4,689 nucleotides of DNA from a virus (taxonomy: Duplodnaviria; Heunggongvirae; Uroviricota; Caudoviricetes): IMG/VR virus record IMGVR_UViG_2713896777_000007. One strand, written 5' to 3'. Made by a program: the position numbers. Positions 1 to 3,000 of this stretch are shown in pieces. How positions within the stretch are numbered: the first letter of the stretch is position 1; each line of letters starts with the position of its first letter.

Positions 1-3000
1 TCAGATTAATGTTAAGCGTCTTGCAGGACGCGTAATGTTAACTGGGGCTTTTCTCTATCTGCCGTTGGTGTTCATGCCCGAGGCAGATAGCCTCAAGCAC
101 CCGCTGCAATTCTACTTAACTATCCTTTTCCCGCAAACCGTTTTTATCCCCAGCGGCAAATCGAATACACCACCAGCGCCACCGCCATCGCAATTCCTAC
201 CGTTGTGAATGCTTCAGGCCAGGTCATTGATTCACCTCCTGCGGCGGTTCTGGTAGCGACATCCAGTGGGTTGCTTGCCTAAGATCATTACCCGGACTAA
301 CTGCTATACCTCCGCGCCGGAACGTGCCTCCGAGATAGCGTGCGGAATATATTAATGGCCCAGCCTCGCTATCGATATTCATCGAAATAAGCACGTTCTG
401 GCTCTTTTCAGGCATTCGCTCAGTACAGCTTATCCAGCCATCCAGAGTTATCGGAGATCTGGTTGACGTTTCCGAGATTTCCCGAAAATTGTTGGTTGAC
501 GAATTCTTATTTTCCCGAAAGTTTCCGGCCTGAAGCATGGCGACGCGGCAGGCGTTCCAGCCATCAGCATATGTTTTAGTTACACCGTCGAGATGGCAGG
601 TAAGCAAATCCATTTCATCAGGCACTACCATTGCTATCGGCTCTGCTTCCAGTGATGCCAGCGCGATACGAAACACATTAGCCAGCAGGCTGTCTGAAGA
701 CTTGTTATCGTGCGCCGAGTCGCTCAGGAAGCCTGTGATGTATGATTTAATCTCCGCGCGTTCTCTGGTAATAGTGCTCATATCAGTTTTCCTTATACGG
801 ATTAATTTTATTGTGCAGTGCGCTGAATGATTCCCATGTCACATCGGTATATAGCTCAATAACTGGTTCAAATGTCCTTCCAATTATCCAGACCAGTAAT
901 AGCGGGGATATCGGTATCATCAACACTATAAACAGAATGAAAAACAGAAACTCTGTTGTTCTGCTCTTTCGTGGGTAATTTTTTTCTAAATAATGTTTCA
1001 TTTCTTACCGCCCTTTCGGGCGGCCTCCTGATGTTCTGAGGGTGCAGGAATCCCTCCGGTTAAGGATTTAATAAAAATCGTTTCTGATTTAAATCTTCAG
1101 TATTTAGTTGNNNNNNNNNNNNNNNNNNNNNNNNNNNNNNNNNNNNNNNNNNNNNNNNNNNNNNNNNNNNNNNNNNNNNNNNNNNNNNNNNNNNNNNNGT
1201 ATTGAAGATTATTTTCCTCCATCCAGGCGTTAAACTCTTCCGTTGAAATATATTCCCGACCATCACAGAATTTTTCATATTCAGGATGTGTCCAGTAGCC
1301 ATATCCGTCACGAACTACCGGCATTTCTTTAATTTCACTCACTGTTAACCTCCTGCAACGCTACACGATACGCCTTCTTTATCCACGCCTTACTGCCATA
1401 TAATTTCGTCTTCATAATAAACACACCTGCACGACTCGCCGATATCCCCGGACAGGTTAACAGCACAGCATCCACCACACGGTTATGCTTCCGAAACTCC
1501 ATTACAGTACTGCTGATAACCACCTGCCCCACCGGGCCGTAATCCTGATACAGGATTTTCACGCAGACACCCTCCTGTCGAAATAAACGTAGTTATTCAC
1601 TATGCGCAGCGGCATGCCTAATTTTCTGGCAATTTCCCTTCTTTGCATGCCTCTCTGATGCAGTTGCCGCGCCAGCTCAATATCACGCTGAGAATATTTT
1701 GCCGACGGGTGAAAATCACCACGTAACATCATGCTGATGCCCAGCTCCCGTGCCTTCGTTCTCACTGCCGCTTCAGTTCGTCCGATAAGTGCGCCAACGC
1801 TTTTTACCTTCATCGTTCCCGCACACTGCCGGAGTATCATGATTTCCGCCCGGCACCACGTCTTCCACCCACTCACCGCTGCTGTTCTCTGGTGGCGGTA
1901 ATATCCCGGAGAATATCCCGGCACTTGTTCAGCTCCCGCAGCGCGGCGCAGACTCGCTCCCACTTCTGAACCTGACCTTTTGCCCGGCGCAGCTCGCGGT
2001 TAGCCACATGCAGCGATGGTAAAATCAGACCATCCGGATGTTTTCTGGTGAACGACGGCTGTGACTGCACTGTGACCGCCACACTTTCCGTTTTTATTTC
2101 TTCCTGTGTTGCGGCTTCCCGGACTGGTAACGCAGCACCTGCTGGCTGAGGAAAGGCCTTACCATCATTTTTCGTTACCGGCGCGGCTTTCGGATCTGCT
2201 GGTAAATTACCCCCCGACATGCAGTAACGAAATTTACCGTTCTGATTAACGCGTGCCAGCCGCCCCGTTGCGGTTACCACCGCCAGCGTGGAAGCAACCT
2301 TGCGAGTACTGACGCCGAACTTACCCGCCAGTTCCTCACACGTTTTAGCACCATCCTGACCGATAAACTCAACCATCATGTCTGCGGTAACTTTTGGAGC
2401 GACCTCTTCGGTTACCACATCCGGCGCTTCAGGTTGTAGTGCCTGCCCTTCGGTTACCCCGGCTTCACCTTCGACAGCCAGAAACCAGGTGTGACCCGTT
2501 TTATCAACAACGCCATTTTTTTTGAGTTCCCACAGTTCGTTAAGAACTTCTTCACGGCTGATATCAAGCCGCGCCGCCAGTTCAACAGAATTGGCTTTTC
2601 CCATCGCTTTCAGTGCATGCAATACAGTTTCCATCGAAAATTTACCTCGTCAAAAATTCTCACATACCCTGACGTCCAACGTTTGACCGCCAGCTCTCCC
2701 AGTTAAAATTCACCCAACGACCACCATTCATGGTCATACGGTCCATCACCCGATCTCCGAGGAGTGTGCTCATCGCTGCGTGATTCAGGTTCGTCAGCAT
2801 TCCGACACTACGCATCGAAGCCGTTCTGCGGTCGACTATCTGGTTCAGCGTGACCTGCTCGTTGCGCGTATCCCGCTGCATGCCAATTTCATCAAGGACC
2901 AGAAGGTCAACTCCACAAAGCTCCTGTAAAAATTTTTCCCCGGACTGGCCGTTGTCGTAGCCGTCATGCAACACGCTCATGACATCGGACACGGTGACGA

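Follow-up and report, generated by a model that had tools for sequence, protein, structure and literature searches.

Can a reading frame of only 27 codons in a phage genome be recognised as a gene, and what would its product do? This question is raised by a micro-open reading frame (micro-ORF) on the minus strand of the IMG/VR virus record IMGVR_UViG_2713896777_000007 (Caudoviricetes). A stretch of 4,689 nucleotides (nt) of this record, hereafter called the window, was analysed as a whole. As judged from the comparison with related sequences, the micro-ORF is very likely a real protein-coding gene. It is probably a bona fide gene for a 27-residue single-pass inner-membrane microprotein, for which a modulator role is proposed tentatively, and is found in lambdoid prophages, both of Shiga toxin (Stx) and of non-Stx type, and on plasmids. 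The locus consists of the following elements:

144..227, minus strand: the micro-ORF, 27 codons plus the stop codon TAA (146-144), with the product MTWPEAFTTVGIAMAVALVVYSICRWG.
224..227, minus strand: the ATGA junction, in which the start codon ATG (227-225) overlaps the upstream stop codon TGA (226-224).
228..241, minus strand: the cassette leader CAGGAGGTGAATCA, which holds the Shine-Dalgarno sequence (SD) AGGAGGT (240-234) and encodes the Q-E-V-N-Q end of the upstream protein.
224..781, minus strand: the upstream cistron and coupling partner in the window, coding for a mosaic protein of the Ea22-like type (185 residues) whose C-terminal domain is DUF551 (PF04448).

The minus-strand junction region of the window reads CCGCCGCAGGAGGTGAATCAATGACCTGG. 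The AGGAGGT motif is separated from the ATG by 6 nt (7 nt if counted from the GGAGG core). Both the overlap of the ATGA type with the stop codon of a co-directional upstream gene and an SD that lies within the coding sequence of the upstream gene, functionally spaced and kept together with the micro-ORF, are features of a translationally coupled cistron. As far as can be read from the nucleotide sequence, the micro-ORF is arranged for translational coupling, with its SD within the final codons of the upstream gene. The preliminary description had named the same elements, namely an ATG overlapping the DUF551 stop codon, a well-spaced AGGAGGT embedded in the last DUF551 codons and a product of 27 residues, and all of them were recovered exactly in the minus strand of the window. 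The upstream protein, termed "DUF551 domain-containing protein" (WP_000104474.1) by the Prokaryotic Genome Annotation Pipeline (PGAP), matches PF04448 of Pfam with its residues 115-181 of 185 (E = 5e-20).

The window contains 69 ORFs of at least 20 amino acids (aa); the length of the micro-ORF alone is therefore unremarkable, and the case depends on the comparison with relatives. IMG/VR was searched with the ribosome-binding leader alone (CCNCAGGAGGTGAATCAATGA), a query that is blind to the body of the ORF. An intact 27-codon ORF was present in 121 of the 124 usable loci selected by this anchor, and 21 intact peptide variants were observed. Of the three disrupted copies, one has a frameshift, one has a nonsense mutation, and in the third the stop codon is lost. 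The concern that the frame might be broken in related prophages while the SD persists is thus not borne out. One of the three disrupted copies is that of E. coli strain G1/2 (L130 801-914), where a deletion of 1 nt leads to an out-of-frame fusion towards the DUF4222 gene; decay is real but uncommon.

Further copies were found by means of patterns within the ORF body. In all 136 copies checked in this way, start and stop codons overlap as in the window. The second codon is ACC, AGC, ACT, AAC, ATC or AAT (Thr, Ser, Asn or Ile), and its first base is A in 222 of 222 instances, by which the upstream TGA is preserved. The spacing is exactly 51 nt in all but one of 126 pattern matches, for which 42 to 60 nt had been allowed; the sole exception contains an in-frame deletion of two codons and no frameshift. 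Diverged lineages with a mutual nucleotide identity of 64-70% (blastn) have all kept the 27 codons, the overlap with the upstream stop codon, the SD and a stop codon of their own. Their peptides are MNWPEAFAITGVAMAIAFLVYVICRWG, MSWPDAIVTLGVVFAAAFVVFSICRWG, MNWPEAFTAVGVAIAVAFILYSLFRWG, MSWPEAFATVGIVMAAALGLYSICRWW and MTWPEAFTTVGVVMAVAFAVYSVCRWG. Both TAA and TGA are used as stop codons among the copies.

The substitution pattern carries most of the argument. Pooled pairwise comparison of 57 unique sequences yielded a ratio of non-synonymous to synonymous substitution rates (dN/dS) of 0.24 in the ORF frame, compared to 1.06 and 1.60 in the other frames. A minimum spanning tree of 71 unique sequences, whose counts are approximate and do not amount to a codon-model test, gave 131 synonymous and 122 non-synonymous changes. 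The synonymous fraction of 0.52 exceeds the expected value of 0.25 (p = 3e-19), and 144 changes fall on codon position 3 compared to 59 and 50 on positions 1 and 2. No synonymous enrichment was found in the two other frames of this tree. The excess of synonymous changes in frame, together with insertions and deletions that are mainly multiples of three, characterises the micro-ORF as protein-coding sequence under purifying selection. The rare longer entries in the protein database result from in-frame expansions of hexamer repeats (…AMAMAMAV…), stop losses and upstream alternative starts. Hexanucleotide expansions in the helix core (…GIAMAMAMAMAVAL…, …AVAVAVAL…) or a duplication of 15 residues were seen in the entries P0073, P0074, P0075, P0081, P0068 and P0036. 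The core expansions suggest that replication slips at GCGATG/GCGGTG repeats and thereby extends the helix while the frame is kept.

The micro-ORF is not tied to one upstream gene. At least five unrelated types precede it: several DUF551 proteins of 117-276 aa, a fusion of dATP/dGTP pyrophosphohydrolase and DUF551, a 114-aa protein ending in ...ISVEDILR, a 131-aa coiled-coil/zinc-ribbon protein ending in ...NIEQEVNR, and EaA and Ea22. They are members of the Ea22/EaA family, which is mosaic in its make-up. The V2 variant of Ea22 in Stx phages has been described as carrying DUF551 as a portable domain at its C-terminus (PMC10834534). An alignment anchored at the ATG revealed that the 14 nt of CAGGAGGTGAATCA are common to otherwise unrelated upstream sequences, namely DUF551, the 131-aa coiled-coil protein and those of the L128/L132 type. 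A second leader type, GTGGAGGAT(A/G)TTTTACG, stands before the micro-ORF in the class with the 114-aa gene; a GGAGG-type motif is part of both leader types and accompanies the micro-ORF behind unrelated genes. In phage 933W this motif is weakened to AGAAGGT. Because unrelated upstream sequences converge on CAGGAGGTGAATCA, the Q-E-V-N-Q/R tail appears to be supplied by the leader and to be part of the micro-ORF cassette and not of DUF551, in agreement with a DUF551 profile match that reaches no further than residue 181 of 185. The start signals of the gene downstream would accordingly shape the final codons of several genes of the Ea22/DUF551 type.

The homology likewise ends at the stop codon of the micro-ORF. 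What follows is either the hok promoter, the genes DUF4222-xis-int, another gene overlapping the stop codon or one of several different intrinsic terminators. If classified by the first 12 nt past the stop codon, without merging point variants, the downstream contexts form 33 groups, and hok is missing from most context classes. In 933W the micro-ORF is located between L0139 and hokW; in PhiR5_1 and many prophages it is located between an Ea22-type gene and DUF4222-xis-int. With homology boundaries at the SD and at the stop codon, SD and ORF together are, by sequence comparison, a portable cassette of about 98 nt (CAGGAGGTGAATCA plus the ORF). The coupling to the DUF551 gene, which had been put forward in the preliminary description, is therefore true of the arrangement in the window and is not specific to DUF551, as EaA, Ea22, the 114-aa and the 131-aa genes take the same position elsewhere.

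Two observations concern the downstream side of the cassette. In xis-int contexts (L128-L130, L132 and L233) the ATG of DUF4222 follows 5 nt past the micro-ORF stop codon (TGGGGATAACCACATG), and the final codons of the micro-ORF supply a GGGGA ribosome-binding motif to DUF4222, which mirrors the upstream tail carrying the SD of the micro-ORF. In some prophages (L126 951-1055 and L127 951-1055) a second small hydrophobic gene is inserted between the micro-ORF and hok. It codes for 34 aa (WP_001278450.1), starts with MSDDISLAMEGALAVIAVVGVYCLV and has a GGAGG site of its own; PGAP calls this gene and not the one of 27 aa.

The family is widespread. A blastn search with a region of 131 nt, which includes 33 nt of the DUF551 tail and hence counts matches of the region rather than intact ORF copies, yielded 4400 matching places. 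They are spread over 1758 of the 5426 complete E. coli genomes, about a third, often with several and with at most nine in one genome. At the peptide level, matches were found by tblastn in 94 phage records, including 933W, VT2-Sakai, Min27 and ArgO145. Furthermore, 180 plasmids contain the peptide, nearly all of which are non-mobilizable; they come from Escherichia, from Salmonella in 25 records and from Klebsiella in one record. The 25 plasmid matches sampled for size range from 48 to 212 kb with most at 86-118 kb, and the carriers of about 86-118 kb are probably phage-plasmids. Two copies can occur in one prophage as a pair of paralogues on the same strand, 2.5 kb or about 8.4 kb apart. No homologue of the peptide was detected in phage lambda by tblastn, and no copy was found in the Rac prophage of K-12, to which the search of that strain was confined.

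In a strict pattern scan of genome contigs, the family was confined to Escherichia and Shigella, aside from stray matches on tiny contigs in Xanthomonas and Acinetobacter assemblies and one chance match in Pseudomonas. The tiny contigs, from Xanthomonas pisi (L134, 431 nt) and Acinetobacter idrijaensis (L137, 369 nt), contain intact copies that equal, or nearly equal, variants of E. coli, and the record PP818812.1 (Actinobacillus phage vB_Apl-pPE4) contains a copy that is 100% identical to the window peptide. These Xanthomonas, Acinetobacter and "Actinobacillus" copies most likely represent contamination with E. coli prophages or mislabelling and not the true host range.

None of the RefSeq (PGAP) and phage records inspected contains an annotation of the micro-ORF; in the chromosome of E. 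coli strain E2865, for example, PGAP annotates nothing between DUF551 and hok. That the ORF is unannotated, as had been stated at the outset, applies to these records only, since GenBank/nr does list the exact peptide, with a handful of accessions that are named "hypothetical protein", "bacteriophage protein" or "prophage protein" (e.g. AOM45384.1 and ASL59396.1). The idea of a real short gene overlooked by gene callers agrees with conserved selection of the coding type and with the absence from the RefSeq and phage annotations inspected. Some nr entries call the 27-aa peptide "DUF551 domain-containing protein", and in a protein collection clustered at 90% identity it shares clusters 1 and 2 with DUF551 proteins of 121 and 185 aa. 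A search of the 27-aa peptide for the DUF551 profile gave no match; the label looks like an artefact of the neighbouring gene or of clustering, and could mislead annotation transfer.

In Pfam, NCBIfam, PADLOC and the PDB, nothing above threshold was found for the peptide. The matches below threshold, which are KdpF, a POT-family helix, a glycine-zipper region and phrog_4612, reflect transmembrane composition. A full-text literature search with peptide strings returned no paper, and the supplements of two small-ORF studies contain no match to the peptide. One of the two studies is a large survey of enterobacterial microproteins, among whose unnamed clusters the family may sit. Term searches of a review on the proteins of the exo-xis region yielded no small membrane ORF.

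For the product, a single helix comprising residues 3-26 was predicted with AlphaFold2 (mean predicted local distance difference test score 87.8; a 30-aa family member and an alignment of 15 sequences were used), and the mean Kyte-Doolittle hydropathy of residues 7-24 is 2.13. The preliminary description of the peptide as essentially one hydrophobic helix fits these values. Near-invariant are Trp3, Pro4, Ala6, Gly11, Ala15, Ala17 and the C-terminal sequence Tyr/Phe21-Ser-Ile-Cys-Arg-Trp-Gly27. Position 5 is acidic throughout (Glu or Asp), and the central positions vary among hydrophobic residues. In the predicted helix, Trp3-Pro4 and Arg25-Trp26 are located at the ends of a core rich in Ala, Val and Gly. 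The 23 residues that separate Trp3 from Trp26 correspond to about the thickness of a bilayer for an α-helix. With Glu5 on the N-terminal and Arg25 on the C-terminal side, the positive-inside rule suggests an N-out/C-in topology.

It is plausible to assume the following course of events. The micro-ORF would be transcribed as the next cistron of an early phage operon, which in the window is that of the replication/nin region. Ribosomes would re-initiate, or initiate afresh, at the ATGA by using the GGAGG-type SD in the final codons of the upstream gene. The translated peptide would insert into the inner membrane as one helix, and might there modulate a membrane protein of the host or of the phage during early phage development. 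Such a function as a membrane modulator, rather than as a pore-forming toxin, is proposed tentatively and with low confidence. If it is true for a membrane protein of the host, the peptide would be a new player in the ea and nin accessory regions, which are poorly understood; an influence on the lysogeny of Stx phages has been reported for Ea22, a protein encoded in the ea region.

A bolder and more doubtful version of this proposal combines the peptide with its mobility. Here the cassette of about 98 nt would attach itself to the 3' ends of early phage genes that are unrelated to each other and thereby rewrite their last four or five codons, and the Trp-flanked peptide would bind a specific inner-membrane protein of the host, biasing the decision between lysis and lysogeny, superinfection exclusion or host physiology. 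Candidate partners could be, for example, a transporter, a component of the divisome or a component of the phage receptor or DNA-entry machinery. If this were the case, the peptide would be a widespread and overlooked effector of Stx and other lambdoid phages.

Several points weigh against a conserved membrane modulator. Most of the sampled copies are from closely related prophages, and the counts are not independent; moreover, two of the sequence sets were chosen by motifs within the ORF. Some variants contain charged residues in the core (V20E, V10K) or have lost Arg25, which indicates that selection is not strict in every copy. A permutation analysis found no preferred helix face in the conservation (p = 0.6), which gives no support to a specific helix-helix interface; a conserved face, for example with a small-xxx-small interface, was dropped as a candidate for this reason. 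Due to the variability of its neighbours, the context of the micro-ORF indicates neither a partner nor a function. Finally, a ribosome-profiling study of enterohaemorrhagic E. coli Sakai (Hücker et al.) covered ORFs of at least 30 aa in uninduced cultures, and we infer the translation of the micro-ORF from its sequence.

Among the other explanations, a membrane-damaging toxin or host-killing peptide, similar to type I toxins or to phage peptides of the Kil type, fares best, and it is unlikely. According to this explanation, expression of the early operon would lead to depolarisation or permeabilisation of the inner membrane. The peptide is indeed small, hydrophobic, single-helical and prophage-borne, and a hok/sok locus directly adjoins the micro-ORF in the window. 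However, of the two roles suggested in the preliminary description, toxin or modulator, no feature speaks specifically for the former. Neither an antisense RNA nor a fold-back leader belongs to it: the only Rfam family in the region is sok, whose element begins 42 nt beyond the micro-ORF stop codon, and no Rfam family overlaps the micro-ORF. The strong, exposed SD and the coupling are the opposite of restrained translation, most context classes lack hok, and there are up to nine matching places per genome. The core rich in Ala, Val and Gly has no amphipathic or charged tail, and no match to Hok or another toxin family was found in Pfam, NCBIfam or PADLOC. The micro-ORF thus displays neither the family membership nor the combination of antisense RNA and restraining leader by which type I toxin-antitoxin systems are recognised. 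Membership in the hok/sok system itself was rejected on the same two grounds, the predominance of hok-less context classes and the start of the RNA element 42 nt past the stop codon.

It is very improbable that the act of translation matters and not the peptide. In this case, a terminal coupled mini-cistron might hold ribosomes at the 3' end of the mRNA of the operon, counter Rho or affect downstream transcription. This would agree with the constant overlap with the upstream stop codon (136 of 136 copies) and with the observation that the micro-ORF is often the final cistron, followed by an intrinsic terminator or a new promoter. It does not account for purifying selection at the level of amino acids (dN/dS of 0.24), for the near-invariant residues Trp3, Pro4, Gly11, Ala15 and Ala17 and the motif Y-S-I-C-R-W-G, or for a length of 27 codons that is fixed in diverged lineages, and the downstream contexts are too diverse for a single regulatory logic. 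For the micro-ORF, no promoter of its own and no distinguishing terminator were detected. A structured RNA was rejected, as the fold z-score of -0.28 indicates no stable structure over the ORF region. A leader peptide or attenuator ORF was rejected as well, given that the downstream sequence is not constant, includes immediate terminators and has no significant structure.

Least credible of all is the view that the ORF is incidental to conserved non-coding DNA, such as a linker for mosaic recombination or a control region of hok/sok, or to a decaying gene fragment: short conserved sequences do occur at the junctions of the mosaic lambdoid genomes, and 27-codon ORFs are common by chance (compare the 69 in the window of at least 20 aa), but this view is largely refuted by a substitution pattern with third-position changes concentrated in the micro-ORF frame only, and further by the intact ORF in 121 of 124 anchor-selected copies, by its presence in hok-less contexts, by the lack of a structured RNA and by the fact that no longer homologue contains the micro-ORF as a piece, the longer entries being stop-loss, upstream-start and repeat-expansion variants.

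A gene for a membrane microprotein remains the preferred reading, and its setting is as follows. The remaining genes of the window, all on the same strand, are:

4385-3408, minus strand: a replication initiator-like gene.
3391-2660, minus strand: a DnaC/IstB-like ATPase gene.
2634-1873, minus strand: a DUF1627 gene.
Between the DUF1627 and DUF4014 genes, minus strand: a gene for a helix-turn-helix protein.
1001-783, minus strand: a DUF4014 gene.
After the micro-ORF and running off the window edge, minus strand: the start of a hok/sok locus.

Over the 800 bases that surround the micro-ORF, the window is 100% identical to prophages in the chromosomes of many Shiga-toxigenic E. coli strains, for example E2865, where the genes further on are Hok/Gef, a YgiW-like gene, DUF968 and RusA. 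This is the nin-type region of a lambdoid prophage, which is located between the replication genes and the late-gene regulator. A run of 88 N at 1111-1198 lies between the DUF4014 gene and the small genes upstream of it; ORFs across it contain runs of X and are uninterpretable. In the E2865 prophage (locus L001, positions 1-543, compared to 2660-3391 of the window), the DnaC/IstB-like gene is frameshifted according to PGAP. In the window, its longest ORF has 243 aa and a TTG start. It is possible that this lineage of prophages has a defective replication module.

The sok family of Rfam (RF01794) was detected with 113.5 bits at 3199-3373 of L001, which corresponds to the window from position 102 outward past its edge. 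The window contains the 5' part of hok/sok at 1-136 on the minus strand (L001 3199-3523), and the Hok coding sequence lies outside it. A candidate hok promoter with the -35 sequence TTGCGG (136-131) and the -10 sequence TAGAAT (114-109) begins 7 nt past the micro-ORF stop codon. The segment GCTTGAGGCTATCTGCCTC (98-80) presumably resembles the 5' end of the hok mRNA of plasmid R1.

The micro-ORF is present in medically important Stx phages, and yet none of the protein-family libraries searched contains it. Annotation is known to have a blind spot for small membrane proteins. In this case the comparative evidence is unusually clean and the translational arrangement is defined, which makes the micro-ORF easy to tag and to delete; the family merits a profile for annotation pipelines.

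How, then, does the micro-ORF compare to known systems? The Hok/Gef type I toxins (hokW/hokD type, PF01848, RF01794) are likewise small, hydrophobic, single-helical and borne by prophages or plasmids, and a hok locus adjoins the micro-ORF in the window and in 933W. In contrast, the micro-ORF peptide has 27 aa compared to about 50 aa for Hok and no sequence similarity to it, and the micro-ORF has no antisense RNA, no leader ORF of the mok type and no fold-back mRNA; it is coupled, has a strong SD and often occurs without hok. With the exo-xis and ea genes of lambda and Stx phages (ea22, ea8.5, orf60a, orf61, orf63 and orf73) it shares the neighbourhood and presumably also early transcription. 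The proteins of that region have been described as soluble (PMC10834534, PMC8614690), whereas the micro-ORF product is predicted to be a membrane peptide. The sole PHROGs profile match is phrog_4612 (E = 0.019), in which residues 1-23 align to positions 33-54 of 57; this family is longer and uncharacterised in function, and the weak and partial match is not evidence of membership.

There is also a likeness in kind to KdpF, AcrZ, MgtS and CydX, enterobacterial small accessory or regulatory proteins of the inner membrane with fewer than 50 aa, one transmembrane helix and very short tails. The micro-ORF peptide has the same build, and its one predicted transmembrane helix would place it among small membrane proteins of the KdpF/AcrZ/MgtS kind. 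It differs from them in being below every family threshold, in having no constant partner gene and in being phage-borne and mobile. For example, the KdpF model TIGR02115 gives 14.7 bits compared to a cut-off of 26.85, a similarity that is due to shared helix composition. Set beside these systems, the micro-ORF represents a conserved, uncharacterised and unnamed family, which falls among the small membrane proteins of the single-pass type that are encoded in the accessory regions of temperate phages.

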